DNA of 64,000 bases from Myxococcota bacterium (GCA_046583195.1 JAYGCV010000021.1:11660-75659); one strand, 5' to 3'; shown: positions 1,983 to 43,321, counted from the first letter of the stretch. Translations and numbers: made by a program. Notes: a model not told the origin generated them from the letters alone.

Positions 1983-2000
1983 GCCGGGGATGGTAGCCTG

Positions 2001-4280: not shown

Positions 4281-4326
4281 AGATTCCTGCTGTACCGTCC
4301 GCTTTCGCAAGGGGGATTTCCCGTCG

Positions 4327-6372: not shown

Positions 6373-6375
6373 CGC

Positions 6376-10842: not shown

Positions 10843-10964
10843 GATGTCACCGGACCATACGTCGCGGTCGGCTTGACGGGAACCCCCTCGGGGCGAGGCG
10901 GCGCATCGCTGGCGACAGCGGTCCCGGCCTGCCACCGCGGTTCCTCCTGAAATAGACTGGCCGC

Positions 10965-12587: not shown

Positions 12588-12672
12588 CTCCCCACGATCA
12601 GCGCGGCTCCAGGCGGCAGAAACGCTACCCTTCCGCTTCTTGCCGGTGCAGGAGTGCCGACCGAGCGCGGTG

Positions 12673-15815: not shown

Positions 15816-15818
15816 GCC

Positions 15819-17252
15819 GTGGCGCTGCGAAGGATCGCGCTGGGCATCGTCGCTTTGGTGGCGGCACTTTCGATCGCCTACGCCGTGGCGCTGCGCGTTC
15901 CGAGTCCGGTCTCGCTGAACTACGTCGAGGGCTTCGCGCAGATCGACGCGCAGCGCGTTGCGGCGGGAAGCGCCCTCTACCGGAACCCGGCCTCCCCGCC
16001 GTGGACGTTGCACGTCTACACGCCCCTCTACACTTTTGCGGTCGCCGCGATCACCAGCGACTTCGGGAGTTATGCACCGGGTAGACTCCTTTCTCTTGGC
16101 GCGCTGCTCGCCACCGCGCTGCTCATGGGTGCCAGTGGAGCGCGGAGAGCGGGCTGGGTCGCCTGGATCATCGCGGGCCTCTACCTGTCACAGCCGCTGC
16201 TCACCCAATGGGGCGCAGTGGTGCGTCCAGACAACCTCGCGGTCTTCTTCTCCGCCGTCGGCGTCGTCTGCGTCGAACGCCTTTCGGGGCTGCGCGGTCT
16301 ATTGCTGGCGGCCGTCTTCTTCCTGCTGGCGCTGGCCACAAAGCAGAGCGTCGGTCTGGGGCTGTTGGCGGCGATCCTCTTCCTCCTCTTGCAGGCACCC
16401 AGGCGCGCCCTGGTCCTCGTCGCCCTGGTGGCAGTGGGCGCCCTCTCAACGACCCTTGCACTCGAAGCGCTCTCTGGGAACTGGTTCATCTTCCATACCT
16501 GGACCGCGAACCTCGCCCCCTTCTCGCTGGAAAAGAGCCTGCACCTCGGCGGGATCTTTCTCCGCGAACACGTTCCCCTCGTTGCGGCCGCCTTCGCGGT
16601 GCTGATCGCCTGCGGATTGCAGCGCCGCCTCTCGATCCACGCCCTCTGGTTCGCTGGGGCAGCGGTCTCGACGGTCGCCTCGGGACGGATTGGGGCCGAC
16701 ACCAATTATTTCCTCGAGAGCCTGGCGGCGGCGGGTTTCCTGCTGGCGAACGAGTGGCCGGTCCTCCGGGAGCGTTTTCGCGCGCGGGCCCCGGGCTGGC
16801 TCGAAACGGCGCTGCTCACCGTCGCCATCGCGATGGCGCTGTTCCAGGCAAGGACCCTGCACGCGAATTACGCCTGGATCGAGGGCGCCGAAACGCGCTT
16901 TCTCGAGGCCCGGGATCGGATGCGGGAGAAACCGGGAGCCATTCTCTCCGACGACGCTGGACTGCTCGTGTCTCTCGATCGACCGCTCGTCTATCGACCG
17001 TTCGCAATGACCCAACTCGTCTACGCCGGCGACTTCGATCCCACGCAACTCGTGCAGATGCTCGAGTCGGGCGAGTTCGCCTTCGTCGTCTTCGAAGCGG
17101 TCCCAGGCCGGGGGCCATCGCCCGCACGCTACACTGCGGAAATGCGCGCAGCGCTCGCACGGAACTACCGAAGCGAAGGTCGCTATCGCACCTTTTCCAA
17201 CTTCGAGGTCTACGCTCCGCGCAGGCCCGGGAGCCTGGATCCGGCCCTGTGA
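15819..17252 (+). CDS. polytopic membrane protein, GT-C-like (family unassigned)
   Basis: GTG 15819, 3 nt after the upstream stop. About 10-11 hydrophobic segments, then a soluble C-terminal ~120 aa (LSDDAGLLVSLDRPLVYRPFAMTQLVYAGDFDPTQLV...). No family motif recognised with confidence. Assignment rests on architecture and context. Confidence 0.5.
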   Translation: MALRRIALGIVALVAALSIAYAVALRVPSPVSLNYVEGFAQIDAQRVAAGSALYRNPASPPWTLHVYTPLYTFAVAAITSDFGSYAPGRLLSLGALLATALLMGASGARRAGWVAWIIAGLYLSQPLLTQWGAVVRPDNLAVFFSAVGVVCVERLSGLRGLLLAAVFFLLALATKQSVGLGLLAAILFLLLQAPRRALVLVALVAVGALSTTLALEALSGNWFIFHTWTANLAPFSLEKSLHLGGIFLREHVPLVAAAFAVLIACGLQRRLSIHALWFAGAAVSTVASGRIGADTNYFLESLAAAGFLLANEWPVLRERFRARAPGWLETALLTVAIAMALFQARTLHANYAWIEGAETRFLEARDRMREKPGAILSDDAGLLVSLDRPLVYRPFAMTQLVYAGDFDPTQLVQMLESGEFAFVVFEAVPGRGPSPARYTAEMRAALARNYRSEGRYRTFSNFEVYAPRRPGSLDPAL

Positions 17253-29327: not shown

Positions 29328-32153
29328 TTGAGCACCCTACTCGGTCTCATCTTTTTTCTCTCGGGCGCTTCGGCACTACTCTTCGAAACGCTGTGGTTCT
29401 TCCAGACGGGGCTGGCGCTCGGCAATTCGATCTGGGCTTCGAGCCTGGTGCTGGCCAGCTTCATGGCAGGGCTGGCCCTCGGCAACGGAATCGCCAGTCG
29501 CTTCGGCCATTGGATCCGGCGCCCGGTCGCGGTCTACGCCGGGCTCGAGGTGGTGATCGGCGTTTCGGGGGCCGGGCTCGTTTTCTTGCTGCCAGAGTTG
29601 ACCCCGCTGCTCGCCCCGATCCTCGGTCCACTCGTCGACGAGCCGACCCTGCTCAATTCGCTGCGGCTCGGGATCGGATTCCTCTTGATGCTGGTTCCCG
29701 CCACCGCGATGGGCGTCACCCTGCCGATCCTGGTGGCCGCGGTCTATGGCCGGGACCAGCGCTTCGGCCACGTCCTCGGGCGGCTCTACGGCTGGAACAC
29801 GCTGGGTGCGGTGGCGGGGGCCCTGTTGGGCGATGCCCTCCTGATCGGATGGTTCGGGATCGAAGGCTCTGCGCTCTTCGCCGCCGCGCTGAACGGGCTG
29901 GTCGCCGTGCTGGCGCTCTTCCTGTCGCCGCACCTTGGCGCCAGCCCCATCGAGAACGTCACCCCCTGGCGAAGGCGCATCTCGCGTCGAGGCTGGGCCC
30001 TGCTCGGCGCGGCCTTTCTCGCCGGGGGAGGGCTGCTGGCCCTCGAAGTGATCTGGTTCCGCTTCCTGCTGTTCTTCATTCCTGGCACGAGTTTCACCTT
30101 CGCGGTGATGCTCGCGGTCGTGCTCGCCGGGATCGGGCTCGGTGGCTTTGCCGGTTCGGCCCTGCTTTCACGTTGGCCCGAGGCGTTCCGGTTCTCGGGG
30201 ACCGTCGCGCTACTCGCGGGTGGCCTTGCGATCTGGCTCTACACCGGATTCGAGATCTTCCTGCCGGAGTCGGGGCGCATGCTGAAATCCGGCTTCGGGG
30301 ACATCCTCAGCCTGGCGCTTCCGCTGATGCTTCCCGTGGCCCTGTGTTCCGGCGCACTCTTTCCGTGGCTCGGCGAGGCCCTCCACCGCGAAATCGGGGG
30401 AGAAACGCGGTCCGCGGGCCTCCTCACCCTTGCCAATACAACCGGCGCCGCCATCGGTTCGCTGCTGGGCGGCTTCGTGCTGCTCCCCACCATCGGGGTC
30501 GAGGCTTCGCTGCTGGTTCTGGCGGGCGGGTACATCGGGACCGCCGCGCTGGCCTTCGCAGGCGGAGTGCGCCCACAAAAGCGCCTGGCGCGGTGGAGCA
30601 CCGCGGCCCTCGGCGCGGCGCTGCTTGCCAGCCTGGCCCTGTTTCCGCTGGGCCAGGCCCAGGATCGTTTCCTCGCCCGCGCGCTATCCGACTACGTCCC
30701 CCCCGAAAAAGTCATCTCGGTGCGCGAGGGCCTCACCGAAACCCTCGTCCACACCCGCCAGGAACTCTTCGGCGAAGCGCTCCACTACCGCCTGATCACC
30801 AACGGACACTCGATGTCGGCGACTTCGCTCGGTTCGCATCGCTACATGAAGCTCTTCGTCTATCTGCCCGTAGCGGTACACAAAGCGCCTCGCACTGCGC
30901 TGCTGATCAGCTTCGGCGTGGGCGGAACCGCGCGCGCTCTTGCGGATACCGACGAACTCGAGAGCATCGACATCGTAGACATCTCGCGGGATATCCTCGA
31001 GCTTTCGAGACTGGTGGCCTGGGATGCAAGCGAATCCACCGGGCGAGGGCGGACCCAATCGCCGCTCGACGATCCCCGCACCCAGGTCCATATCGAGGAT
31101 GGCCGATTTTTTCTGCAGACCACCGACCGGCACTTCGACATCATCACCGGCGAGCCGCCGCCGCCGAAGCTTGCCGGAATCGTCAATCTCTACACCCGCG
31201 AATACTTCGAGTTGATCCGAGAGCGTCTCGCGCCCGGCGGTGTCACCAGCTACTGGGTCCCCGTGCACTCGCTCCTGATCGACGACACCAAATCGATCCT
31301 CCGCGCCTTCTGCGATGTGTTCGCGGATTGCACGCTGTGGACCGGATCTGGAAGGGATTGGGTGCTGCTCGGTACCAAGGAGGGTCGGTCGAAGGTCGAC
31401 CGCGAACGCTTCGGACTCCAGTGGAGGAAGCCCTCCGTGGCGCGCGAATTGCGGGCGGTGGGCTTCGAAGAGCCGGGGCAGATCGGTGCTCTCTTTCTCG
31501 CCGATCACGACCAGATCGCCGCGATGACCGCCGACGTGCTGCCCCTCGTCGACGACTTTCCGAAGCGCCTCTCGAACCGGGTCGGCGGAAGCACCTACGA
31601 GGCCTGGATGAACCCAGTGAATACCCGGAAGCGCTTCATCAAGAGCCGCGTTCTGCGCGAGAGTTGGCCGCCGGAACTGATCGCCGAGAGCCTCCCCTAT
31701 TTCGACCAGCAGGACGAGATCAATCGCATTTTCGGCTACAAGGGCGGCACCAAACGGCCGGGTGTCCAGGGGAACTGGCTCCCGCGAATTCACGACCTCC
31801 TCACCGAAACCACGCTGCGCACCTTGCCCCTCTGGTTGATGGACAGCAGCGTCGACATCCAGCGCCTGGCCCGAATTGCCGCGCGCAAGGGCAGCACGAC
31901 CGGCCCGGTGCACTACCACCTGGGCGCCGGTGCCTTCGTCACCGGAAACTGGCGCGAGGCCTCTCGCCACTTCGGTCGCACGCTGGCACTCCAAGCCGAC
32001 CCCAATGTGCTCCCGTATCACACCTACGCTCTGTGCCGCGCGGGTTTCTCGGAACGCGGGCTTCGCCAACTCGCGGCCGTGCGCGCAGAGGCGGAATTTT
32101 CGGAAAATGCCGCACTCCTCTCGCTTCTCGAGAACATCTGCACGACTCCCTGA
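29328..32153 (+). CDS. fused polytopic membrane / spermidine-synthase-like (class I methyltransferase fold) protein
   Basis: TTG 29328, 10 nt after the gcdH stop. The first ~470 aa form many TM helices (FFLSGASALLFETLWF is typical of this fusion family). Then comes LLISFGVGGTARAL...IDIVDIS...IEDGRFFL...FDIITGEPPPP, a polyamine aminopropyltransferase-like Rossmann motif. A ~300-aa helical tail follows. The overlapping 1196-aa ORF 29393..32983 is a shadow frame. Confidence 0.75.
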   Translation: MSTLLGLIFFLSGASALLFETLWFFQTGLALGNSIWASSLVLASFMAGLALGNGIASRFGHWIRRPVAVYAGLEVVIGVSGAGLVFLLPELTPLLAPILGPLVDEPTLLNSLRLGIGFLLMLVPATAMGVTLPILVAAVYGRDQRFGHVLGRLYGWNTLGAVAGALLGDALLIGWFGIEGSALFAAALNGLVAVLALFLSPHLGASPIENVTPWRRRISRRGWALLGAAFLAGGGLLALEVIWFRFLLFFIPGTSFTFAVMLAVVLAGIGLGGFAGSALLSRWPEAFRFSGTVALLAGGLAIWLYTGFEIFLPESGRMLKSGFGDILSLALPLMLPVALCSGALFPWLGEALHREIGGETRSAGLLTLANTTGAAIGSLLGGFVLLPTIGVEASLLVLAGGYIGTAALAFAGGVRPQKRLARWSTAALGAALLASLALFPLGQAQDRFLARALSDYVPPEKVISVREGLTETLVHTRQELFGEALHYRLITNGHSMSATSLGSHRYMKLFVYLPVAVHKAPRTALLISFGVGGTARALADTDELESIDIVDISRDILELSRLVAWDASESTGRGRTQSPLDDPRTQVHIEDGRFFLQTTDRHFDIITGEPPPPKLAGIVNLYTREYFELIRERLAPGGVTSYWVPVHSLLIDDTKSILRAFCDVFADCTLWTGSGRDWVLLGTKEGRSKVDRERFGLQWRKPSVARELRAVGFEEPGQIGALFLADHDQIAAMTADVLPLVDDFPKRLSNRVGGSTYEAWMNPVNTRKRFIKSRVLRESWPPELIAESLPYFDQQDEINRIFGYKGGTKRPGVQGNWLPRIHDLLTETTLRTLPLWLMDSSVDIQRLARIAARKGSTTGPVHYHLGAGAFVTGNWREASRHFGRTLALQADPNVLPYHTYALCRAGFSERGLRQLAAVRAEAEFSENAALLSLLENICTTP

Positions 32154-32220: not shown

Positions 32221-34677
32221 ATGGGCTTCGAGATCGATTCGCGCGTGCTCGAGCGCCTCGAGTGGCCCCAGGTCCAGGAGCGCCTGCATGGCCACTGCAG
32301 GCTGTCGCGCACCCGGCGCTGGGCCGAGACGCTCTCCGCATCGCAGCCTGCGGGCGACGATGCGAACGCGGCCACCGGCTCGCTCTTCGAGTCGGATCCC
32401 GAGCGCGTCCGGGGGCGGCTCGCAGAAACCCGGGAAGCGCGCCAGTTGCTCGACGCAGACTTCCTCCCCCCCTTCGGACACCCCCCGGATGTCGGCCCGG
32501 CTCTCGAACGCGCACGGCGCGGCGGAAGCCTCTCGGGCAGCGAGTTGCGCGGCATCCACTCGAACCTCGCCTGTCTTCTTGAGATGGGCCGCTACCTCGA
32601 TCGCCACAGCGAGACGATCCCGAACCTGCGGGAGGCCGTCGGCGAGTTCGCGGTCGACGCCCACCTCGCACGCGAGATCGAGACCTGCATCGACCCGTCC
32701 GGGGAAGTCAGCGATCGAGCCTCTCCCGAAATTGCGCGCAGCCGCAGGGAAGCCGCGAAGCTCGCCACTTCGATCCAGAAAAAACTCGGTAGCACCCTGC
32801 GCGATCCGAAGGTCGCGCCGCACCTCACCGATCACTACGTCACCCTCCGCAACGATCGCTATGTGCTCCCGGTGCGAGCCGATGCAAAGGGTCGCGTGCG
32901 CGGGATCGTTCACGACGCCTCCAATTCGGGAACTACGCTCTACGTCGAACCCCAGGCCGTGGTCGAACTCAACAACGAGCTGAAGCAGGCCGAACTGGCG
33001 ACGGCCCGCGAGGTCCTGCGCGTTCTGCGTAAACTCTCCTTGCGCGTTCGCGAAGCGACTCCCTCGCTCGAAGTCTCTCTGCAGAAGCTCGAGCACCTCG
33101 ACTGGGCGTTCGCCCGCGCGGAACTGTCCCGGGAGATGGACGCCGTAGAACCGGTAGAGAGCAAAGACGGCAGTTTCGAACTCCTCCAACTCCGTCATCC
33201 CCTCATCGATCCAGGGCAGTGCGTCCCCAACGACGTCCGCCTGGGGAGCGACTACCGGATCCTCGTTCTTTCGGGTCCGAACGCCGGCGGGAAGACCGTA
33301 ACGATGAAGGCCATCGCCCTCGCGGCGCTTTTCGTGCGGGCCGGTCTCTTCGTACCCGCGGCGCCTGGGGCCCGAATCCCCTTCGTCGATACGGTCCTCG
33401 CCGACATCGGCGACGAACAGGACATCCGCGAGAACCTTTCGACCTTCTCGGCGCACATGGCCAACCTGGCAAAGATCGCGCGCACCGCAACTGACGCGTC
33501 GCTCGTGGTGCTCGACGAGATCGGTGTGGGGACCGACCCCGGTGAAGGGGCGGCACTCGCCCAGGCGATTCTCGAGTCGCTTGCGGACCGCGGTGCGCGG
33601 GTGATCACGACCACGCACTACAACCTGCTGAAGGAGATGGCCGAAGTCGACGACCGCTTCTGCAACGCCAGCGTCGCGTTCGACCCCGATACCGGCGCCC
33701 CCACCTACCGTCTGCGCTACGACATCGCCGGAGCCTCGTCGGCCCGGGCGGTGGCCTCACGCATGGGAATGCCCCAGTCGATCGTCGATCGCTCCCACGC
33801 CCTGCTCGAACGCGATGATCGGCAGCTCGACCGGATGCTTCTCGAACTCGGCGCCAATCGCGCAATGCTCGAGCGCGAGCAGGGCGAGGCCGAGGCGGCG
33901 CGCGCCGAAAGCGAGGCGACGCGAGACGCGTACCGCGAAAGACTCGAGCGCTTGAAGGCCCAGCGCGAGAAACTTTTTCAGGCGATGCGAAGCGATCTCG
34001 ACCGGGCCTTTGGAGAGGCGCACGAGCAGGTGGCCGGGGTGATCCGCGAACTGCAGCGCGGGGGCAGGCGCACCACCGCCCAGGAGGCCGCGAAGGCACG
34101 CGAAGAGTTGCTCTCCATCGAGGTCCCGTTCGCCCCTGAAAGCGAAGTGGAGCGCGAGGCGCCAGCGGAACTTTTACGCGACCCGGTGGACTGGAACCGG
34201 ATGACCCCAGGCGACCCGGTCACGATTCCGGGGGGCGGAGAAGCATCGCTGCTATCGCTCCCCGATTCGCGCGGACGCGTGCGCGTGCAGGCGGGCAGTG
34301 CGCGCATCGAATTATCGGCCGAATCGATTCGCAGCGTTGCCCGGTCGACGTCGAAGCCGGACCCGGCGACGCTTCGAACCGACACCCCTGCGGTCACAGA
34401 GACCGAGGAGTCCCTGTCCGGGGGAAACGTCGAAATCGCGCTACGCGGATTGCGCGTCGACGAAGCTCTCCATGCGGCCGAAGACGCCCTCGACCGTGCC
34501 GCACGAGACTGTTCGGATACCGTGACCTTCATCCACGGAATCGGAACCGGGGCCCTGCGAGAAGCCATCCACGGTTTCCTGCGAAGCTCCCCCTACGTGG
34601 CAGACTTTCGCAGTGCCGAGCGAAACCAGGGGGGCGCAGGCGTCACCATCGCCGTGCTCCGCGGTGCAGAGGAATAA
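32221..34677 (+). CDS. mutS2: endonuclease MutS2 (MutS-family ATPase with C-terminal Smr domain)
   Basis: 818 aa. Motifs: LSGPNAGGKTVTMK (Walker A), LVVLDEIGVGTDPGEGAAL, TTTHY and a long coiled coil. The C-terminal Smr domain reads IALRGLRVDEAL...FIHGIGTGALREAI. Confidence 0.9.
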   Translation: MGFEIDSRVLERLEWPQVQERLHGHCRLSRTRRWAETLSASQPAGDDANAATGSLFESDPERVRGRLAETREARQLLDADFLPPFGHPPDVGPALERARRGGSLSGSELRGIHSNLACLLEMGRYLDRHSETIPNLREAVGEFAVDAHLAREIETCIDPSGEVSDRASPEIARSRREAAKLATSIQKKLGSTLRDPKVAPHLTDHYVTLRNDRYVLPVRADAKGRVRGIVHDASNSGTTLYVEPQAVVELNNELKQAELATAREVLRVLRKLSLRVREATPSLEVSLQKLEHLDWAFARAELSREMDAVEPVESKDGSFELLQLRHPLIDPGQCVPNDVRLGSDYRILVLSGPNAGGKTVTMKAIALAALFVRAGLFVPAAPGARIPFVDTVLADIGDEQDIRENLSTFSAHMANLAKIARTATDASLVVLDEIGVGTDPGEGAALAQAILESLADRGARVITTTHYNLLKEMAEVDDRFCNASVAFDPDTGAPTYRLRYDIAGASSARAVASRMGMPQSIVDRSHALLERDDRQLDRMLLELGANRAMLEREQGEAEAARAESEATRDAYRERLERLKAQREKLFQAMRSDLDRAFGEAHEQVAGVIRELQRGGRRTTAQEAAKAREELLSIEVPFAPESEVEREAPAELLRDPVDWNRMTPGDPVTIPGGGEASLLSLPDSRGRVRVQAGSARIELSAESIRSVARSTSKPDPATLRTDTPAVTETEESLSGGNVEIALRGLRVDEALHAAEDALDRAARDCSDTVTFIHGIGTGALREAIHGFLRSSPYVADFRSAERNQGGAGVTIAVLRGAEE

Positions 34678-34688
34678 TCCCCGAAACC

Positions 34689-35360
34689 ATGCTCGGTACC
34701 CGATTCGGTTTCACCGCTGTCGCCTTTTTCGCGGCACTCTGCTTCTCGGCAGGGCTGCTCGGAGTGCCCGCCGCCAGCAGCGACCAGGCCTTCGACGGCC
34801 ATCGCACCGTGGGCGTTCGCAAGTGCGCGACCTGCCACAAGAAGAAGACCCTCGGAAACCAGCTCGCCGCGTGGCGGGCCGCGCCCCATGCACGCGCCTT
34901 CGAGACCCTCTCGAATGCGGAATCCCGGGCGCTCGCAGAAGCTGCCGGGCTCTCGCTTCCGCCGAACCAGGCCCCGGAGTGCCTGCGCTGTCACCAGACG
35001 GGTTTCGGCTTGCCCGAGGCGGCCTTTGCCTACGAAATCGATCCCGCGGACGGCGTGCAATGCGAGAGCTGCCACGGACCCGGGCGCGACTACCGCAAGA
35101 AAAAGATCATGTCGGACCCAAAGAAGGCGCACGCCAAGGGGCTCTTCGACAGCGACGACCCCGCGATCTGCACCGCTTGCCACAACGCCGAAAGCCCGAC
35201 CTTCGACCCCGATCGCTTCCTCCTCGCCGATGGAACCCGCTCGGCCTTCGACTTCGAAGTAGCGAAGAAGAGCATCGCTCACCCGATCCCCGAAGCGACG
35301 AAGGGTCACTACCTCGAGATCGAGAAGAAGTTGAAGGCCCAGGGGAAGAAGGTCGAGTAG
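34689..35360 (+). CDS. secreted tetrahaem c-type cytochrome
   Basis: Signal peptide (FGFTAVAFFAALCFSAGLLGVPAASS) and four CXXCH motifs: CATCH, CLRCH, CESCH, CTACH. The segment CxxCH...W...PHA.AF..L resembles multihaem cytochrome c554-like families. Confidence 0.85.
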   Translation: MLGTRFGFTAVAFFAALCFSAGLLGVPAASSDQAFDGHRTVGVRKCATCHKKKTLGNQLAAWRAAPHARAFETLSNAESRALAEAAGLSLPPNQAPECLRCHQTGFGLPEAAFAYEIDPADGVQCESCHGPGRDYRKKKIMSDPKKAHAKGLFDSDDPAICTACHNAESPTFDPDRFLLADGTRSAFDFEVAKKSIAHPIPEATKGHYLEIEKKLKAQGKKVE

Positions 35361-35368
35361 CCCGGCGG

Positions 35369-37528
35369 CTACTCGTAGAGCGACGCGAAGTCGACCTCGA
35401 CCTCCACCGTGAAGGTGTGAACCGTCTCGCTGGTGTCGAGGAAACCATCGGGGTGGGTGTCGTCGAAGTCCTGGAGCCGGTAGCCCCACCCGAGAGTCAC
35501 GGCCTTCGTAAGCCTGTACTCGATGTCGGTCTCGAAACCGACGATCCGGTTATCGAGCCGGTTCGCCGCGTCGAGCACCGCCCCAGTCGAAGAGTTTCGC
35601 GAGAGATCGGCACGCGTCCAGGTGAGCGAGACCGCCGCACCGACGGAAACGGCGCTCCCGATGGGATGGCGTCCGCCCACCGCCAACGAATAGACGTCGC
35701 TCTCGTAACGCTGGTCCGAGTCGATGAAGAGGTCGTTCGAGACTGCGCCGCTCGAACGCGGCAACTGGATCCGCAGGTGATTCCAGTCCTGGCCGTCGTG
35801 GTGCTGGGTGTAGTGGGCGAAGACACTCAGATCACCAATGGGAACCGCGGCGAGCGAAACGTTGTAGCGCCAGTTCAGGCGCTGGTACTCCTTCGATCGC
35901 TCGGTGCTCGCGGTGAGCGACCAGCCCGGGGCCTTCCCCGAACGCACTCCACCGGACACCGAGAGCGTGAGCGGGACCGCGACGGGAAACGTGTAACTCG
36001 CGCGAGCGTCCGCGTAGACCGCCTTCGAGAGTTCGTTGGGATACGCGGTTTCAGGCCCCCAGTCGTATCCCAACTCGCCTTCGAGCCGCAGCGCTCGACT
36101 GCGCAGGTGCCCCGCGAGATAGAAGACGTGGTGCAGGCTGTTCGGACCGACGAGAGCCAAGCTCTTCGGAACGCCATCGGTGGCAAAACGCAACTTGCGA
36201 TGGCTGTAAGCCGCGCGGTAGCCGAAGGCGGCCCGCACCCCCGAGCGCGGCCGAAAACCGAACTCGACGTTCGCCCCCAGTCTCCCCAGGTCGCGGATGT
36301 AGGGCGAATCCTGGGCGGCGAGCGGGGTGACTCCGGGGCCGAGTTGATTGACATCGATGCCGTTGTGGAGGTGAAACCACTTCGCGAAGCCGGTGACGTC
36401 GAAGCGCTCGGTCAAAGGCCAGTCGAAGCTGCTCCACAGCGAATAGCTCGTGCGATCGTTGTCGCCGAGCGACGCGGCCTGCTGCCCCGGCGTCTTGCGA
36501 CCCACCTGGGAGAGATGCGTGAGGGTGGCGCCTCCCTGCAGGCTCGCGGCGCCCCAGCGTCGCGAGAAGTCGAGCCTTCCGGCGACGCGGTCGGTGTCGG
36601 GAACGAAGTCCAGGGCGACTTCGCGCCCGGGCAGGAGTTCGGCGGTCTGGAGCGGGGCGTCCTCCCGGAACGATTGGAAATTTGCGCGCAGCGCGGTGGT
36701 CCACTTCGGGACGGGCTGGAAGACGAGCCCACCCCCCCCCGTCGTGATCTTCTGGTCCAGCTTGCGGCGGCGCCCCTGGTAGCCGGTGGTTCCGCCGGGG
36801 CCCGGCGTGCAGGCGAGGCACATGCTGTCCTGCCGGTATCCGCTGCGCGTTTCGTAGTCGCCGTAAAGATCGATCTGATCGAGGAAGGGAACCTCCCAGT
36901 CAAAGCCCTCCGGGCGAAGCGAGACCTCTCCACCCACGTTCTGCCGGCGAATCCAGAAGCGGTTGTCCGCATCGAAGATCGCGGCGTTCGGCACGTCGGG
37001 GTTGTAGATCGAACCAAAGCAGCAGATCCCTCCGAACTGGGTCTCGCCGGTGCCTTCGGGAAATGCGCGCAAGTAGTCGCCCTGGTAGCGACGCCACTCA
37101 CCTTCGACCTCGAGGCCCTTCCAGTCGAGGTCGAAGAAGCCGCGTTCGTTGAGCGCGTTCGGGCTCCAGCGTTCGAGCCTGAGAAGCCAGGTGTCGTCGC
37201 TGCGGCGAAGCCCCAAGTTCGCGTGGAAGAGATCGACGAAGTACGGGGGACGGCCGCCCTGGTTGCGGATATAGCGCCACTGATCGAAAAAGCCCGACAC
37301 GTTCGACGAATCGAAGGGGGCACTTACCAGGTAGAGGTGCGCGCCCAGGGTGGCCTTCGCTTCGAAACGAAGGCTCTCCTCCTCTTCGTCATCTTCTGCC
37401 GCCACGATCATGGCGGGGGCCAGGCAGAGGACGGCGAAAAAGGTGCCCGCTGCGATTCGAAGCCGCGCGATTCGAAGCCGCGAGGCGCTAAGCCCATTCG
37501 GCGCGGTGCTAGTAGCGGAGTTTCGCAT
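35369..37528 (-). CDS. large outer-membrane beta-barrel, MtrB/PioB-like (decahaem-associated porin candidate)
   Basis: 719 aa, ATG 37528, with signal peptide ...AAGTFFAVLCLAPAMIVAAED. Amphipathic beta-strand patterning runs throughout (AVTLGWGYRLQDF, IVGFETDIEYRL, HTFTVEVEVDF). No TM helices and no cofactor motifs. It lies immediately downstream of the decahaem gene and overlaps it by 20 nt. Size and gene order match the MtrAB/PioAB/MtoAB paradigm. Family membership is not verifiable by eye. Confidence 0.65.
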   Translation of the reverse strand: MRNSATSTAPNGLSASRLRIARLRIAAGTFFAVLCLAPAMIVAAEDDEEEESLRFEAKATLGAHLYLVSAPFDSSNVSGFFDQWRYIRNQGGRPPYFVDLFHANLGLRRSDDTWLLRLERWSPNALNERGFFDLDWKGLEVEGEWRRYQGDYLRAFPEGTGETQFGGICCFGSIYNPDVPNAAIFDADNRFWIRRQNVGGEVSLRPEGFDWEVPFLDQIDLYGDYETRSGYRQDSMCLACTPGPGGTTGYQGRRRKLDQKITTGGGGLVFQPVPKWTTALRANFQSFREDAPLQTAELLPGREVALDFVPDTDRVAGRLDFSRRWGAASLQGGATLTHLSQVGRKTPGQQAASLGDNDRTSYSLWSSFDWPLTERFDVTGFAKWFHLHNGIDVNQLGPGVTPLAAQDSPYIRDLGRLGANVEFGFRPRSGVRAAFGYRAAYSHRKLRFATDGVPKSLALVGPNSLHHVFYLAGHLRSRALRLEGELGYDWGPETAYPNELSKAVYADARASYTFPVAVPLTLSVSGGVRSGKAPGWSLTASTERSKEYQRLNWRYNVSLAAVPIGDLSVFAHYTQHHDGQDWNHLRIQLPRSSGAVSNDLFIDSDQRYESDVYSLAVGGRHPIGSAVSVGAAVSLTWTRADLSRNSSTGAVLDAANRLDNRIVGFETDIEYRLTKAVTLGWGYRLQDFDDTHPDGFLDTSETVHTFTVEVEVDFASLYE
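37452..37481 (-). repeat. perfect 15-bp tandem duplication inside the barrel gene's signal-peptide n-region
   Basis: The plus-strand unit gcgattcgaagccgc occurs at 37452-37466 and again at 37467-37481. The duplication is in frame and encodes the repeated ...RLRIA-RLRIA... in MRNSATSTAPNGLSASRLRIARLRIAAGTFF. Confidence 0.9.
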
Positions 37529-38435
37529 CGCTGTAGGACCCGTGGATCGCGCCGTGGCAGTCGGTGCAGCGTCGCAGGAAGGCCCGGGCCTCGTTCGCCT
37601 TCAGGAGTTCGCCGGCGGCGCTGGGGAAATCCTGCGTGATCTGGCTATTGCCGGTGATCCCCGTGGCCAAAAGATCGTGGTGAAACTGGTCGTTCAGGGG
37701 ATGACACCCCAGGCACACCACCGGCTGGATCGTCGCAAGCAGGTTGTCGGCCACCGCGCCGTGGGGCGCGTGACAGCTTCCGCAATTTTCGACCACCGGG
37801 GGATGTTCGTAGACCCAGGGACCGACGATGTCCTGGTGGCACTGGGCACAGACCTGGTTCGTCGTGGCATGGGCCACGCGCGAGTCCTCGTGGGGGTCGT
37901 GGCAGCTGGTGCAGGCCATGCCGCCCTCGCGCACCGGGTGGTGCGAGGGATAGTTGAACTCGGCCGACACGTCGCGGTGGCATTCGATACAGAGCCGTGA
38001 CGGAACGTCCATGTTCCTCGACCCGGGTTGAGAGAAGACCCGCAGGTGATCGCGATCGGTCGAGTGAGGGTTGTGACAGTCGGTGCAGTAGAGCCCCGCC
38101 CGCGAATGCTCGCCGGTGCCCCACGAAAGATGCGTATCGAAGCCCACCGCGTGGCAGCGAAGGCAATCCGTGTTTGCGGGGTGGCGGATCTCGAGGGGAT
38201 CCTCGCTGTCGGCGTGCAGGCTCCCGCCCCCGTGGCAACTCTCGCAGTCGGCGTGGTAGGCGGCGATCTTCTCGTGCCCGTGCACTTCGTCGTGGCACAC
38301 CAGGCACTCCTCCGCCCCGACCCTCATCGCCCCCGCGACCGGGGCGGAACGATGCGGACCCAGGGCGCTCCAGTCGAGCGAAACACAGGCAGCCCCCAGG
38401 AAGATCGCACCGAGGATGGCGACCAGGCGCTTCAA
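37509..38435 (-). CDS. periplasmic decahaem c-type cytochrome, MtrA/DmsE/PioA family-like
   Basis: 308 aa, TTG start at 38435, with signal peptide LKRLVAILGAIFLGAAC. Exactly ten CXXCH motifs: CLVCH, CESCH, CLRCH, CTDCH, CIECH, CTSCH, CAQCH, CGSCH, CLGCH, CTDCH. The C-terminal CTDCHGAIHGS resembles the MtrA-family end (C..CH..IHGS). Confidence 0.9.
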   Translation of the reverse strand: MKRLVAILGAIFLGAACVSLDWSALGPHRSAPVAGAMRVGAEECLVCHDEVHGHEKIAAYHADCESCHGGGSLHADSEDPLEIRHPANTDCLRCHAVGFDTHLSWGTGEHSRAGLYCTDCHNPHSTDRDHLRVFSQPGSRNMDVPSRLCIECHRDVSAEFNYPSHHPVREGGMACTSCHDPHEDSRVAHATTNQVCAQCHQDIVGPWVYEHPPVVENCGSCHAPHGAVADNLLATIQPVVCLGCHPLNDQFHHDLLATGITGNSQITQDFPSAAGELLKANEARAFLRRCTDCHGAIHGSYSDAKLRY

Positions 38436-39790
38436 GCCGGGAGTCGCTCGTCTGCGATCAACGCACCCGCGGCGCGCTCCCCCGAAACCACCAACGCATC
38501 GAGGTCCGGCCCCTGGAGGTAGTCCCCGGCGAAATAGAGCCGACGCCCCTCGCGTCGGAGTTCGGGCTGGATCTTCTGGAAACGCGCCAGGCGCCGGTAG
38601 CTGCCAACGTCAAAACACGGAACCGCGAGTTCGGAGCGCAACCAACGACGAAAGCGAACGGTCCCCGTAGCTCCCGGGTCGATCTGCTCGTAGGCCGCCT
38701 CGATTTCCTTCGCGACCACGTCGTCGGCCACGCCAGCTCGCGCGCTTACGAAATCCTCCCGGGCCTGCAGCATCAGCATTCCGCGCCCGTTGGGCACCCG
38801 GCCACCCGCGAACCCCGGCTCCGAGAGAACCGCCTGGATCGGACTGGACTCGCTCTTGGGAATGCGGAGAAACTCGGGGATTCCGGTGCGCGCGCGATCG
38901 AGGCCGAGCACCAGCAGCGCCTCGGGCGCGTAGCGAACCGGGAGCAACGCATCGCGCTCGGTGAGCGACAGGCAGGAGCCGGCCACCTTGCAGACGGCGG
39001 GGGCCGGAATCGCCAGCACGACCGCGCGGGCTTCGAGGGTTTGGGCGCCCGAGGTTGCGACTTCGCACGCTACGCGGTAGCCGCCATCCTCGAGGGCGAC
39101 GATTTCCCGGGCGGCGAAGCCGTAGCGCATCGACAGCCTCTCGGCGGCGGCCCGCGCCAGAGCTTCCCAACCCGCGCGCGGCAATGCGATTTCGCCGCGA
39201 CTCTCACGCAGCCACTGCAACAGGAAAGCCACGCGGCTCGTGTCTTCCGGGCTGCCACCGCTGGCAGTCGCCAGGGTCGGCGCGACCCATCGATCGAGAA
39301 CATTGCTGCCGAAGTAGAGCCGCGCGAAATCCGCAACGCTGCGGTAGTCCAGAGCCGCCGCCCGTTCGGGAAACTCGAGGTCGAGCTTCGCCTGGTAGCG
39401 CTGCAACAGACGCGGGAGTCGCAGCAGCCGAAAGCCATCGCGCAGGCCCAGTCCGGGAGTCGACGCCAACCCGCGCAGCGAATCGATTTTTACAGCCCGT
39501 GGGCGCCCGCGGTGGAGATGCGCCATCGATACGAAGCACAGCGGCAGCAGCCCCTCTTGCACACCGACCGCTGCCATGAAGTTTCGCAAGCGCGAAGCTC
39601 CGCTCGACACCAGCGGCAGGCGGCTCTCGACGGAGAATCCCTCAATGCGCTCGCCACAGGCCCGGCCTCCCGGCTTCGAGGCCTGCTCGAGAACCACTAC
39701 CGGAAGCCCCGCGGCGCGCAGCTGCCAGGCGGCGGAGAGTCCGGCGAAACCACCGCCCACGACGAGAATGGGTCTCGCTTCGGCGTTCAT
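38432..39790 (-). CDS. FAD-dependent oxidoreductase (protoporphyrinogen oxidase / amine oxidase / phytoene desaturase superfamily)
   Basis: 452 aa. The N-terminal ILVVGGGFAGLSAAWQLRAAGLPVVVLEQASKPGGR is a GxGxxG dinucleotide fold plus the E...GGR motif. The C-terminal YFAGDYLQGPDLDALVVSGERAA is the typical flavin amine-oxidase-fold closing motif. Its TGA (38432-38434) overlaps the TTG of the decahaem gene (38433-38435). Confidence 0.7.
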   Translation of the reverse strand: MNAEARPILVVGGGFAGLSAAWQLRAAGLPVVVLEQASKPGGRACGERIEGFSVESRLPLVSSGASRLRNFMAAVGVQEGLLPLCFVSMAHLHRGRPRAVKIDSLRGLASTPGLGLRDGFRLLRLPRLLQRYQAKLDLEFPERAAALDYRSVADFARLYFGSNVLDRWVAPTLATASGGSPEDTSRVAFLLQWLRESRGEIALPRAGWEALARAAAERLSMRYGFAAREIVALEDGGYRVACEVATSGAQTLEARAVVLAIPAPAVCKVAGSCLSLTERDALLPVRYAPEALLVLGLDRARTGIPEFLRIPKSESSPIQAVLSEPGFAGGRVPNGRGMLMLQAREDFVSARAGVADDVVAKEIEAAYEQIDPGATGTVRFRRWLRSELAVPCFDVGSYRRLARFQKIQPELRREGRRLYFAGDYLQGPDLDALVVSGERAAGALIADERLPA

Positions 39791-39799
39791 GCGCGCAGA

Positions 39800-42361
39800 T
39801 TAGCGGCTTTCAAGACCCGGCGACCCGGCGCCGAAGCCGAGACCTTCGAGCGCCTGCACGACATCGTCGAGTGTCTCGAAGGGCCAAAAGGCCTCGCCGC
39901 GGGCCGAAAGCGCCGAGGCCAGCGTGTCCTTCGCAAAGGCGAGATCGGCGGCGATCGCCCCGCACAGGTCCGAAACCTGGCCGTTTCCGATGTGGACCAG
40001 AACCACGTCGGGATGTTCTCGCCGGTAGCCCTCGATCCGCGCGCGCTTGCACACGCCGGTGCCGCAGGTGCAGGCGGGATCGGGAGCGCCGGGGGCGATC
40101 GACCAGCGTCCTGCCTCGTAGACCAGCCGGTTGGCGAGGTATGGGAAATCGAAACCAAAGAGCTTCTGCAGTCGGTCAAGGTTGTAATCAAAGCCATCCG
40201 AGAGAATCTCGAAATCAATCGCGTGGACGCGACTCCAGTCGAAGAGCCTGCGCGCTCCGGGATCCGGATCGATGCTCCCGAGGAAGGCGTCGAGGTCTTC
40301 CTCGGGCAATTCGAGCCCGTGAAGCAGCAGCATGTTGGACTCCCAGGCAGTGATCTCGCGTCGCCGAAAACGCTCCTGGACCGCCGGCCGCTCCTTCGCG
40401 CGATGGAGCATCACAAGAGTACTGCCAACATCCTGAACGGAAAAAGTCCCGTCGAAATCGCAGAAGACCGCGAGTTTTCGCCGCGGCGGAGTGTCGTCGA
40501 TTCGACTGGCATGGGCCGGAAGGGGAGCGCTTCCCGCCGAACCTTCGACGCCACTGCCCGGGTTGAAGGCGACCTCGACGCGCCGGGCACCCACCCCCGC
40601 CTGAACTCGACCCGGCGTGTCGGCTTCTAGCAGGTCCGGAACGCGCACCCCGCCCATGGCATCGACCCGGCGCGCAATCTCGATGCATTCGGCGACGGTT
40701 CCCACTTCGACCTCCTGAAGTCCCGGAACGTCATCCGAGAACACCACCATCCCGCCGGTCCCGGCAATCACGTTTGCCAGCGAAGTGGATTCGGCGGCGC
40801 TGAGTTGCGTGGCCCGGCTTCGCGTCATCAGGCAATCCGGGTCGTTGATCCAGAGCCGCCGCTGCATCCAGGCCCGAAGTAGGGTGCTGCGCAGGGCGTT
40901 CGCCGTCGAGGGCATGGCGGCTTCTATGCCCGGAACGATCGGTGGCTGCGGATCCCAGGCGGGAGCGACATCCGGACCGATCCGCATCGCGTCGACGATC
41001 CCCACCGCGGGCCCCAGCGGCGAACCGCAGCCCAGCAGGAAGGCGTCTTCACCGGCGCCCCGGCGAATCGCCAGGAGACCCTCCCGCAGGCGCGCGGCGC
41101 GGTTCATCCCGCGGTCCATTGCTCTGGAACGCGCCGCCACGCAGTGCAGGAAATCGAGCTTCAGGTACTCGAAACCCATCGCGGTGAGTTCCCGAAAGAT
41201 CTCTTCGATGTGCAGGCGCACGTCTTCCCGGCTGGGATCGAGAGCGTGCACGGCACCGGTTGCCGTCCACTCGCGCACGAAGGTCCCCACCCAGGGTTCA
41301 GCATCTGCTTCCGGTCCTTCCTCCGGGTTTCGCAACAACCACTCGGGATGCGCCGCGTGGACGCGACTCTCCGGGACCACGCAGAAGGGCGCCGTCCAGA
41401 TCCCTGGGCGGAACCCCGCGTTGCCAATGCGTCGCGCGATCGCCGGAAGACCACTCGGAAATTTATCATTCGTCTCGAGCCAGTCTCCAACGGCCCGCTG
41501 GTAACCATCGTCGAGTTGGACCACTTCGATAGGAAGCGCGTCCCGCCGATGGGCCAGCGCGTCGAGATTGCGAAGCAGCTGATCCTCGGTGACGCCGTGG
41601 AAGAAGTGGTACCAGGAACACCAACCGGCCTGGAAGGCACCCGACGCCCGGGCGTCCGCGCTGCGCCCCCAGAGCGTTCCGAAATTCTCGAGCAGCCCGG
41701 AAGCATCGGGGCCAAGAGCAATGCAGAGCGGCTCGAGAACTACGTTTTCGCCGGGTTCGAGAACAGTTTCGACTTTCCATTCCAATTCGAATTCGACCGC
41801 ATCGCCTGCCCGACGCAGGTAGACGACGCAAAATTGGCGAACGCTCTCCTGCGCACCCACCAGGCAAGCCGCACCGCGCCGGCGCGTGCCCGCGACCCCG
41901 ACCGTCGCCGATTCGAACCAGCCGGCACGATCACCGGGCACCTCGGCCTCGACGTGGTGGAGGCCGCGTAACCACGGGCTCCCGGGAAAGGCAGGGTCGG
42001 CGCTCGCATCGAGGTTTCGGGCGCCGGTGAAAGACCAGGATTGCCAGCCGTGTTTCAAGTAGCGAAGCGCGCCGGCGTTCGCGGGAGGCGTCCAAAGCAG
42101 GGAAAGCACAACGCTCTCGACGGACACCGGCGCCGCGCTGGGGTTGGCCACCTGCGCCTCGAACTGAAGCGACTCGAGACGATTCGCGATGGCGAGTTCG
42201 ACGCGCAGGGGTCCGAGGCGCTGTTCACCCGAAGACGAGAATTCGGGACCGAAGTCGAGCGCTTCGGCAGAAGCGGTTGCCTTCGTGCGGCGCAGCCCCA
42301 GGCGCAAGCTCGCGACCCGGCCCGCCTGGGGATGCGAGAGGATGGCGCGGGAACCCGACAT
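39800..42361 (-). CDS. GH36-like alpha-galactosidase domain fused to C-terminal HAD-IB (MtnX-like) phosphatase domain
   Basis: Frame of ORF 39800..43405. The N-terminal 348 codons are junk antisense to mmuM, and ATG 42361 gives 853 aa. The GH-D clan core has GWCSWYHFF, VVQLDDGYQ, GIWTAPF, YLKLDF (nucleophile Asp context), GCGSPL and INDPDC (acid/base context). The C-terminal ~215 aa have LAVFCDFDGTFSVQD (DxDGT), and ACTCGTGVCK and IGNGQVSD as in MtnX-type HAD phosphatases. Confidence 0.65.
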   Translation of the reverse strand: MSGSRAILSHPQAGRVASLRLGLRRTKATASAEALDFGPEFSSSGEQRLGPLRVELAIANRLESLQFEAQVANPSAAPVSVESVVLSLLWTPPANAGALRYLKHGWQSWSFTGARNLDASADPAFPGSPWLRGLHHVEAEVPGDRAGWFESATVGVAGTRRRGAACLVGAQESVRQFCVVYLRRAGDAVEFELEWKVETVLEPGENVVLEPLCIALGPDASGLLENFGTLWGRSADARASGAFQAGWCSWYHFFHGVTEDQLLRNLDALAHRRDALPIEVVQLDDGYQRAVGDWLETNDKFPSGLPAIARRIGNAGFRPGIWTAPFCVVPESRVHAAHPEWLLRNPEEGPEADAEPWVGTFVREWTATGAVHALDPSREDVRLHIEEIFRELTAMGFEYLKLDFLHCVAARSRAMDRGMNRAARLREGLLAIRRGAGEDAFLLGCGSPLGPAVGIVDAMRIGPDVAPAWDPQPPIVPGIEAAMPSTANALRSTLLRAWMQRRLWINDPDCLMTRSRATQLSAAESTSLANVIAGTGGMVVFSDDVPGLQEVEVGTVAECIEIARRVDAMGGVRVPDLLEADTPGRVQAGVGARRVEVAFNPGSGVEGSAGSAPLPAHASRIDDTPPRRKLAVFCDFDGTFSVQDVGSTLVMLHRAKERPAVQERFRRREITAWESNMLLLHGLELPEEDLDAFLGSIDPDPGARRLFDWSRVHAIDFEILSDGFDYNLDRLQKLFGFDFPYLANRLVYEAGRWSIAPGAPDPACTCGTGVCKRARIEGYRREHPDVVLVHIGNGQVSDLCGAIAADLAFAKDTLASALSARGEAFWPFETLDDVVQALEGLGFGAGSPGLESR

Positions 42362-42385
42362 CGAAGCTAGGTTTACCCCAGTCCA

Positions 42386-43321
42386 ATGGCCGAACGCGAC
42401 CCCCTGGCAACAAACTCCGACGCCGCCTGCGGCTTTCGCACTCGACTTTCCGAGGCGCGCCCCGTGATCCTCGACGGGGCCCTCGGAACCCTTCTCGAAA
42501 GCCGCGGCATCGCCTGTACGCTGCCCCTGTGGTCGGCGCACGCGCTGCTCGAAGCGCCCGATGTCATCGAAGCCATCCACCGCGAGTACCAGGCTGCCGG
42601 CTGCGAAATTCTCACCGCGAATACCTTCCGCACCCAGCGACGCGCGCTCTCGCGTGGCGGCATCGGGGATCGTGCCTTCGAGCTCACTGCCCTTGCCGTC
42701 GAACTCGCAAAGCGCGCCAGCGCCCACGCTCCCCGGCGCTGTTGGGTGGCGGGCTCGGCGCCCCCCCTCGAGGATTGCTATCGGCCGGACCGTGTTCCCG
42801 GCGACTCCGAGCTCGCGGCAGAACACGACGATCACGCACGAAACCTCGCTCGGGCGGGTGTCGACCTGATCTTGGCCGAGACCCAGATCAAAGTCCGCGA
42901 AGCGCGGGCCGCGGCCGCCGCCGCCCACAGAACCGGTCTTCCCTTCGGCGTGAGCTTTGTCTGCGGCGCCGATTCGAGACTGCTCTCGGGGGAAAGCCTC
43001 GAGGAGGCACTCGCGGCGATCTCGGAGTACGAGCCCTCTTTCGTCGCGGTCAACTGCCTGCCACCGCGCGATGCCAGCGCGAGCCTGGAGGCGCTGCTTG
43101 CTGCTTGCGACCGCCTGGCTCTCGATTGGCCCCTCGGTGTCTATCCGAACCTGGGAAACCCCGGCCCCGGCGGCTTTCGCCACGCCAGCTCGCCCACCGA
43201 GCTCGCGGAAGCCAGCAGCCAGTGGGTCCGGCGCGGCGCGCGCATCGTGGGCGGCTGCTGCGGCACCAACCCCGAGTTCACGCGCGCGCTGGTCGCGCGG
43301 ATTCGCGAAGACTTCGCCTGA
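42386..43321 (+). CDS. mmuM: homocysteine S-methyltransferase
   Basis: 311 aa. Motifs: VILDGALGTLLESRG, ILTANTF, VNC and the C-terminal IVGGCCGTNPEF zinc-site motif of the Pfam S-methyl_trans family. Confidence 0.85.
   Translation: MAERDPLATNSDAACGFRTRLSEARPVILDGALGTLLESRGIACTLPLWSAHALLEAPDVIEAIHREYQAAGCEILTANTFRTQRRALSRGGIGDRAFELTALAVELAKRASAHAPRRCWVAGSAPPLEDCYRPDRVPGDSELAAEHDDHARNLARAGVDLILAETQIKVREARAAAAAAHRTGLPFGVSFVCGADSRLLSGESLEEALAAISEYEPSFVAVNCLPPRDASASLEALLAACDRLALDWPLGVYPNLGNPGPGGFRHASSPTELAEASSQWVRRGARIVGGCCGTNPEFTRALVARIREDFA

Follow-up and report, generated by a model that had tools for sequence, protein, structure and literature searches.

A stretch of 64,000 nt of DNA from an uncultured Myxococcota bacterium (GCA_046583195.1 JAYGCV010000021.1:11660-75659), referred to here as the window, carries at positions 34689-38435 a three-gene module that resembles the MtrAB, MtoAB and PioAB porin-cytochrome systems. 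MtrAB-type conduits are the best understood electron route across the Gram-negative outer membrane, and bacteria exchange electrons with extracellular iron through them. The module consists of a ten-haem c-type cytochrome (the decahaem), a predicted outer-membrane beta-barrel protein (the barrel) and a convergent four-haem cytochrome (the tetrahaem). The features, as established by translation of the open reading frames (ORFs), are listed below.

34689-35360, plus strand: tetrahaem cytochrome gene; 223 aa, four CXXCH motifs
35361-35368, no strand: spacer of 8 nt between the tetrahaem and barrel genes, which lie tail to tail
35369-37528, minus strand: barrel gene; 719 aa, signal peptide at about residues 1-44
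37509-37528, minus strand: overlap of 20 nt between the 3' end of the decahaem gene and the ATG of the barrel gene; translational coupling
37509-38435, minus strand: decahaem gene; 308 aa, ten CXXCH motifs, TTG start
38385-38399, minus strand: end of the signal peptide of the decahaem, resembling a lipobox; residues 13-17 read LGAAC, Cys17 being the predicted lipidated residue

The initial annotation of this DNA had described the same three genes, and translation recovered them with the coordinates, sizes and motif counts given there. The 20-nt overlap and the 8-nt spacing were likewise confirmed from coordinates and sequence reading, and signal-like N-termini were read from the translations of all three proteins. 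The decahaem ends in ...RRCTDCHGAIHGSYSDAKLRY, and its TTG start overlaps the stop codon of an upstream flavoprotein gene (TTGA). A six-frame scan of the whole 64 kb (stop-free segments of at least 80 aa) located CXXCH in the decahaem and tetrahaem frames only. The haem motifs are thus not a chance product of GC-rich sequence. The same scan found no CXXCH in the barrel ORF and, as reported before, no further c-type cytochrome of the MtrC/OmcA, CymA/NapC or MtoD types in the window.

In the NCBI annotation (locus tags VCC68_), the barrel is a 'hypothetical protein', the decahaem a 'cytochrome c3 family protein' and the tetrahaem a 'multiheme c-type cytochrome'. The barrel gene calls of NCBI and ENA, at 680-682 aa, start past the signal peptide, which is restored by a start at ATG 37528 (719 aa; start region 37397-37528). 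This is supported as the true start because the same 20-nt overlap recurs in the called genes of three distant relatives (loci L006, L008 and L012, with barrels 31-35% identical to that of the window). There is no sign of recent acquisition: the GC profile of the window is flat, and GC content at third codon positions (0.82-0.84 in the three genes) is the same as in neighbouring housekeeping genes. The latter include MutS2, acyl-CoA dehydrogenase, GlmS, GlmU and UvrD. A scan of 34000-43000 found no promoter-like sites, and terminator-like sites were fewer than in shuffled sequences.

By sequence comparison, the decahaem is a homologue of MtrA. A phmmer search of the PDB matched it to MtrA from the experimentally solved Mtr structure (6r2q_A, E 1.9e-25), with query residues 55-301 aligned to MtrA 91-324 and haems 2-10 covered; the alignment to MtrA is far better than that to NrfB/NrfA. 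Homologues are abundant (1169 at E <= 1e-10), and many that are 50-66% identical have been named 'DmsE family' by JGI. Across an alignment of 119 homologues the ten CXXCH motifs are 100% conserved. Further histidines at 61, 74, 110, 124, 166, 182, 211, 225 and 298 are equally invariant, and His 252 is conserved in 97%. These ten additional residues equal the count required for ten bis-His haems. Among the NCBIfam models, the best score is that of NF041028 (GSU2203/OmcK family), matched over the full length at 213.7 bits with a cut-off of 325. The DmsE-family model TIGR03508, a check proposed in the initial annotation, gave 170 bits over profile positions 1-257 of 258, under its cut-off of 192.2. 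On these scores its position is intermediate between DmsE and GSU2203.

The N-terminus of the decahaem is a second conserved region. Cys17 is present in 97% of the 119 homologues, and a lipobox-like motif, [LVI..][AST..][GAS]C, precedes the first haem motif in 106 of them; the window's own copy has no Asp at +2. The pattern suggests that the decahaem is probably lipid-anchored through Cys17. Shewanella MtrA, which is processed by signal peptidase I, and Sideroxydans MtoA are soluble, non-lipidated proteins, so that a lipid anchor would set this clade apart.

The affinity of the barrel with MtrB is seen in its predicted fold and in profile homology. An AlphaFold2 model built from a 72-sequence alignment (predicted local distance difference test, pLDDT, 90.5; predicted template-modelling score, pTM, 0.85) contains 26 long strands, the count expected of an MtrB-type barrel in the initial annotation, together with an N-terminal signal helix and no plug domain. 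Foldseek searches of the PDB returned MtrB (6r2q_B) as the best match, at E 2.8e-19 and template-modelling scores TMq 0.63 / TMt 0.69. The next matches, to 22-strand TonB-dependent receptors, stand at 2e-8, leaving MtrB ahead by 11 orders of magnitude. A lower-confidence model (8-sequence alignment, pLDDT 67) gave the same top match and the same ranking. The 6R2Q structure was released in 2020, which we take to be later than the training cut-off of the AlphaFold2 model used; on that assumption the agreement is not memorisation.

Homologue searches provide the intermediates between this clade and recognised MtrB/PioB proteins. A word-indexed search with the barrel gave eight matches, one of them bearing PF11854, and an exhaustive profile search with the window-barrel clade against 1.84 billion representatives yielded 166 cluster representatives. 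Aligned by hhalign with 25 distant full-length relatives, the window-barrel clade is matched over its full length (probability 100%, E 1.4e-61, 641 columns). PF11854 is passed by eight of the 25 (best E 7.4e-26), TIGR03509 is matched by seven, and 15 match NF041027, the GSU2204 model (best E 1.1e-15). The window barrel itself has NF041027 as its sole NCBIfam match, at 13.7 bits and E 0.02 with a cut-off of 350. On modelled fold and profile homology, and not by curated thresholds, the barrel is a divergent member of the MtrB/PioB superfamily. Shewanella MtrB carries a redox-active CXXC motif. The CC (164-165) and CLAC (238-241) of the barrel were considered as analogues and rejected, as they occur only in the window and a 98%-identical relative.

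The module is widely conserved. Related loci, denoted here by L-numbers, were drawn from genomes and metagenomes, and 12 distinct barrel- or decahaem-anchored loci have usable flanks. Their barrels are 26-51% identical to that of the window. The decahaem-then-barrel pair is present in all 12, and adjacency and overlap of the two genes are kept in 19 of 19 related loci that reach the decahaem position. In 11 of these 12 loci a c554-like tetrahaem lies beside the barrel gene or is otherwise linked to the pair. The tetrahaem-barrel junction is usually tail to tail, ranging from a 4-nt overlap to a 17-nt gap, with tight convergent junctions in L006, L008, L020, L021 and a JGI contig. At L010, the tetrahaem has been relocated upstream into the same operon (tetrahaem, decahaem, barrel), and the survival of the linkage through rearrangement argues for function. 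Look-ups starting from tetrahaem homologues on long contigs gave the same picture: three of three have a barrel-sized gene (about 716 aa) and a multihaem gene adjacent, that of L021 being called only as a 133-aa fragment. The earlier description of the module as the minimal two-component type undersells it, for a third component, the c554-like tetrahaem, is conserved from lineage to lineage.

In two lineages the module is joined to genes for an inner-membrane complex. These are represented by L003/L006/L007, from a 'Deltaproteobacteria' metagenome-assembled genome (MAG), and by L004, from MAG KW1-S15_187, which derives from a study of deep-sea ferromanganese-nodule sediments (PMC10367259). In both, an operon (L006:12939-15268, the same as in L003 and L007; L004:4152-6503) carries genes for a Rieske protein, for a cytochrome b6/subunit-IV-like fusion and for a tetrahaem anchored in the membrane by its C-terminus. 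The c554-like tetrahaem gene comes last, and the operon converges on the barrel gene. Operon and module together form a complete candidate path from quinol to the outer membrane in these lineages.

In a more distant relative, L019:2824-9684, genes for an MtrC-like protein, a decahaem and a barrel are clustered in that order, accompanied by a NapC/NirT gene and a convergent gene for a cytochrome of about eight haems. The MtrC-like protein passes TIGR03507 (365 bits) and has a PEP-CTERM-like tail. The decahaem of this locus is 40% identical to that of the window and has the lipobox ALAC; the barrel is 26% identical and just misses PF11854 (22.2 vs 23 bits). With this full mtrC-mtrA-mtrB cluster, recognised clusters of the Mtr type are seen to include pairs from this decahaem/barrel branch.

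Other genes, too, are repeatedly found around the module. In several relatives the mtrC slot, immediately upstream of the decahaem gene, codes for a protein of about 865 aa (L008:6401-8989, L002:3820-6318, L020:8699-11314, L001:4817-5944, L004:5-322, L012:11657-12781). It has a signal peptide, 31-33 Cys, a weak DUF4215 match and 0-1 CXXCH, and in L008 a PEP-CTERM-like tail. This Cys-rich protein may act at the surface as a partner without haem; no homologue of it is encoded in the window. Two kinds of small gene, also absent from the window, encode a Haem_bd (PF14376) protein of about 150 aa and a protein of about 216 aa matching choice-of-anchor V / MXAN_6652 MYXO-CTERM surface proteins (L002:3212-3619, L008:5855-6292, L010:5109-6234, L011:10125-10781, L017:4700-5932, L006:15366-16091). 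The lipoprotein signal peptidase LspA (Peptidase_A8) is encoded 1.4-2.6 kb from the module at L020:2695-3255 and in the JGI 3300042731 contig (3876-4415 of the listed stretch). Its nearness attracts attention given the predicted lipoprotein nature of the decahaem, and may be coincidental synteny.

The tetrahaem belongs to the cytochrome c554 family. It passes PF13435 (Cytochrome_C554) at 69.8 bits with a cut-off of 20.8, and matches Nitrosomonas europaea cytochrome c554 (PDB 1bvb, E 3.1e-11) over the first three haem motifs. With NF043010, the equivalog model for Nitrosomonas-type c554 (CycA), it scores 49 bits against a threshold of 400. From these scores it is a family relative of CycA and not an orthologue. 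All of 119 homologues have four CXXCH motifs; H38, H67, H198 and M141 are conserved, and the protein ends in a charged C-terminal tail. The signal peptide is of the ordinary kind. A lipobox-like motif is so rare among the homologues (8 of 119) that the tetrahaem is most simply a soluble exported protein. Cytochrome c554 is a periplasmic electron carrier. The tetrahaem would similarly carry electrons in the periplasm, as a soluble protein linking the decahaem with an inner-membrane complex, a role supported by the Rieske/cytochrome b operons of two lineages that end in it. The initial suggestion of a possible periplasmic partner holds.

The tetrahaem could also be placed on the other side of the membrane, as an extracellular cap at the outer mouth of the same conduit and a small substitute for MtrC. 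Such a position would accord with a borderline score for PF22113, which covers MtrC/MtrF domains II/IV (32.4 bits, just above the cut-off of 30), with a weak match to OcwA, a surface reductase (6i5b, E 8.5e-5), with the tight and reciprocal linkage to the barrel and with a module that otherwise has no outer component. MtrC and OmcA are lipoproteins, whereas a lipobox-like motif is scarce among tetrahaem homologues. The best homologue, c554, is periplasmic, the gene shares an operon with an inner-membrane Rieske/cytochrome b complex in two lineages, and many relatives have the large Cys-rich PEP-CTERM surface protein at the mtrC position. An extracellular cap is therefore considered unlikely.

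Taken with the periplasmic placement of the tetrahaem, the evidence points to a three-part conduit of the MtrAB/MtoAB/PioAB kind, composed of barrel, decahaem and c554-type tetrahaem. We regard this reading as likely. It upholds the assignment made in the initial annotation, through the homology of the decahaem to MtrA, the 26-strand MtrB-like fold and the homology of the barrel to PF11854 members. The proposed mechanism is as follows. (i) The 719-aa protein would form an empty 26-strand barrel in the outer membrane. (ii) The decahaem would be exported, and a lipid on Cys17 would probably tether it to the outer membrane at the inner leaflet. (iii) Its ten bis-His haems would run as a chain through the barrel, with the last haem exposed at the outer mouth. 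(iv) The soluble c554-type tetrahaem would join the inner end of the decahaem to redox complexes of the inner membrane. (v) In some relatives, this inner-membrane complex would be the Rieske/cytochrome b complex with its membrane-anchored tetrahaem. With no gene for a surface cytochrome in the window, the reactive site would be the haem that the decahaem exposes. Partners suited to it would be soluble or colloidal, for example Fe(II), Fe(III) in chelated form or humic quinones.

Several points weigh against this proposal. The decahaem scores under both curated decahaem cut-offs. The MtrB/PioB models PF11854 and TIGR03509, which had been named as a check, give no match for the window barrel even at E up to 1; both were present in the searched libraries, since relatives of the barrel match them. 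Membership in the MtrAB type is accordingly carried by structural and profile-profile evidence and not by curated models. Searched against PDB sequences, the 8-sequence barrel profile had no match, and the 72-sequence profile did not find MtrB, giving weak matches to Cir, Opa and TodX only. The link between barrel and MtrB thus runs through the fold and the PF11854-positive intermediates. The lipobox of the window decahaem (LGAAC, with Gly at -3) is less canonical than the VAAC, LVAC or LGAC of its relatives. No inner-membrane partner is encoded in the window, and threading of the barrel by the decahaem is assumed by analogy with 6R2Q.

The failure of the MtrB/PioB models also bears on whether there is a conduit at all. 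The 719-aa protein could be an ordinary large porin or transporter and the decahaem a periplasmic carrier like NrfB, the two being neighbours by chance. Direct Pfam matches of the barrel are only generic (OMP_b-brl, 23.3 bits, under the cut-off), and TonB-dependent receptors are found among its structural matches. The initial annotation had named model failure coupled with the lack of a predicted large barrel as grounds for rejecting the assignment. The first was indeed found; as for the second, the predicted barrel is large. With MtrB so far ahead of the receptors in the structural ranking, no plug domain in the model, full-length profile homology to PF11854 members, a gene pair kept together in 19 of 19 loci and a decahaem much closer to MtrA than to NrfB/NrfA, a chance pairing is very improbable.

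For the conduit, as noted at the outset, direction cannot be inferred from the genes. Electron uptake, as in MtoAB and PioAB, and electron export are judged about equally probable. Uptake is suggested by the lack of a surface cytochrome in the window, as in MtoAB/PioAB, and by the place of c554 on the donor side in Nitrosomonas. Export is suggested by the Rieske/cytochrome b complex that is operon-linked to the tetrahaem in relatives, as such complexes normally oxidise quinol, and by L019, in which an mtrC (the TIGR03507 match of 365 bits) and a NapC/NirT gene surround a related pair. Baker et al. 2022 (PMC8805035) report that MtoA and PioA do not form function-specific clades and that MtrCAB can operate in reverse; for these reasons, neither phylogeny nor architecture alone would settle the direction.

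Among the closest known systems is the MtrAB core of the Shewanella MtrCAB complex (6R2Q). Shared with it are a decahaem cytochrome about 300 residues long in which all ten haems are bis-His, a 26-strand barrel, the order A then B, and coupled translation. The window differs in having no mtrC or omcA, hence no surface decahaem alongside the pair as in a complete MtrCAB within the 64 kb, though one may lie elsewhere in the genome, and no CymA nearby. The barrel is only about 11% identical to MtrB and is invisible to PF11854/TIGR03509, while the decahaem, unlike MtrA, has a conserved lipobox. In place of the Shewanella partners CctA/STC or FccA, the module has a c554-type tetrahaem.

MtoAB and PioAB are MtrC-less conduits for Fe(II) oxidation and electron uptake. 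The systems of Sideroxydans/Gallionella (MtoAB) and Rhodopseudomonas palustris TIE-1 (PioAB) resemble the module in their decahaem and barrel core, and the window likewise has no surface cytochrome. Their barrels are also predicted to have 26 strands (PMC10654088). Their partners are monohaem MtoD, CymA/ImoA or the high-potential iron-sulfur protein (HiPIP) PioC, whereas that of the window module is the c554-like tetrahaem. The CXXCH scan found no monohaem or NapC/NirT cytochrome in the window, no search having been aimed specifically at a HiPIP. Relatives of the window module are tied to a Rieske/cytochrome b complex and not to a NapC/NirT protein. MtoAB and PioAB form proteobacterial clades, from which this Myxococcota MAG module is distant in both lineage and sequence.

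The comparison with Geobacter sulfurreducens concerns GSU2203 (OmcK) and GSU2204. The window decahaem scores best on the GSU2203 model and the barrel has GSU2204 as its sole NCBIfam match, both under the respective cut-offs of 325 and 350 bits. Members of the GSU2204 family are by definition (seleno)proteins that contain CXXCH, a motif absent from the window barrel. As 15 of 25 barrel relatives match NF041027 and the window decahaem is best on GSU2203, the Geobacter pair looks like an MtrAB-type pair with a haem-motif barrel. The literature found on GSU2203 gives the name OmcK and a predicted extracellular location only, and leaves the pair uncharacterised. MtrA/MtrB-like pairs are common in Desulfuromonadia (PMC11492766).

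The tetrahaem shares four haems and a passing PF13435 score with c554 of N. europaea (1BVB/1FT5). It differs in its association with a porin-cytochrome pair instead of hydroxylamine oxidoreductase, and in its conserved Met141 and charged C-terminal tail. A closer parallel in gene order is found in the 'Group 5' mtrCAB clusters of Acidobacteriia, where a predicted periplasmic tetrahaem is encoded immediately downstream of mtrB and no inner-membrane quinol oxidoreductase is adjacent (PMC8805035). In the window too, a tetrahaem gene adjoins the downstream side of the barrel gene and no such oxidoreductase gene is adjacent, but the Acidobacteriia clusters include mtrC. The main text of Baker et al. 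2022 does not mention Myxococcota (PMC8805035); a survey has reported MtrA/MtrB genes in a Myxococcota MAG (PMC13055281).

Three minus-strand genes lie upstream of the decahaem with gaps of at most 9 nt (38432-42300), and their products include a cytoplasmic amine-oxidase-family flavoprotein and a fused melibiase (alpha-galactosidase-like) and HAD-hydrolase. The cytochrome genes may be co-transcribed with these unrelated metabolic genes. One alternative is that the conduit works with an extracellular terminal reductase of its own, in the way that DmsEF works with DmsAB; the flavoprotein (38432-39790) would then be the catalytic partner. It is co-directional, its stop codon overlaps the decahaem start, and its gene is kept in the close, fully syntenic relatives L005, L013 and L021. 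This arrangement is extremely unlikely, as the protein opens directly with the Rossmann motif GxGxxG and lacks a signal or twin-arginine translocation (Tat) sequence, and its matches, all under cut-off, are to generic models of the amine-oxidase/phytoene-desaturase type. The gene is not adjacent to the module in any lineage past the closest relatives, and no molybdopterin or other exported reductase gene is found nearby. Identification of the flavoprotein as a protoporphyrinogen oxidase or as a catalytic partner was rejected, given N-terminal Rossmann matches only, no signal peptide and poor conservation. It is not counted as a component of the system.

Elsewhere in the window, a run of plus-strand genes at 1239-17252 has the look of a cluster for glycosylating proteins or lipids, of a kind unusual in bacteria. 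It encodes an STT3/AglB-like oligosaccharyltransferase of 1013 aa, a sulfatase-like protein and several glycosyltransferases of the PMT_2 type. The product of 29328-32153 is a polytopic membrane protein of 941 aa that contains an internal domain of the spermidine/spermine synthase type; its gene is syntenic with the module in the close relatives L005 and L021.

The module differs from MtrAB, MtoAB and PioAB in five ways: a barrel that escapes the models, a decahaem of intermediate family, a lipobox, a c554-like partner and, in relatives, a link to a Rieske/cytochrome b complex. The known mechanism is not overturned by it; rather, its diversity is extended, and MtrA/MtrB-type genes had already been noted in Myxococcota MAGs (PMC13055281). 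A broader reading can be offered only tentatively, and we hold it to be rather unlikely. It supposes that a widespread class of three-component conduit has gone unrecognised among uncultured Myxococcota of water and sediment and in allied 'delta' lineages. Its members would combine a divergent MtrB-like barrel with a lipoprotein decahaem and a soluble tetrahaem of the c554 type, and would connect to a Rieske/cytochrome b-type complex instead of a NapC/CymA quinol dehydrogenase. In many members a haem-free Cys-rich PEP-CTERM surface protein would replace MtrC. If such a class exists, heterotrophs that are largely aerobic would have through it a redox interface with Fe/Mn or humic matter, and hidden Markov model surveys that demand an MtrB match would miss it systematically.

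The more immediate consequences concern how these conduits are detected and how they are built. Gene surveys infer environmental iron oxidation or reduction from MtrAB-type conduits. Because the barrel of this clade is invisible to the MtrB/PioB models and annotated as 'hypothetical', surveys requiring both genes would under-count such conduits. A lipid-anchored MtrA, if real, would be a different way of holding the wire in its sheath. The c554-type partner and, in relatives, the operon link to a Rieske/cytochrome b complex provide a testable path from the quinone pool to the outside, unlike the CymA-based schemes of Shewanella and Sideroxydans.

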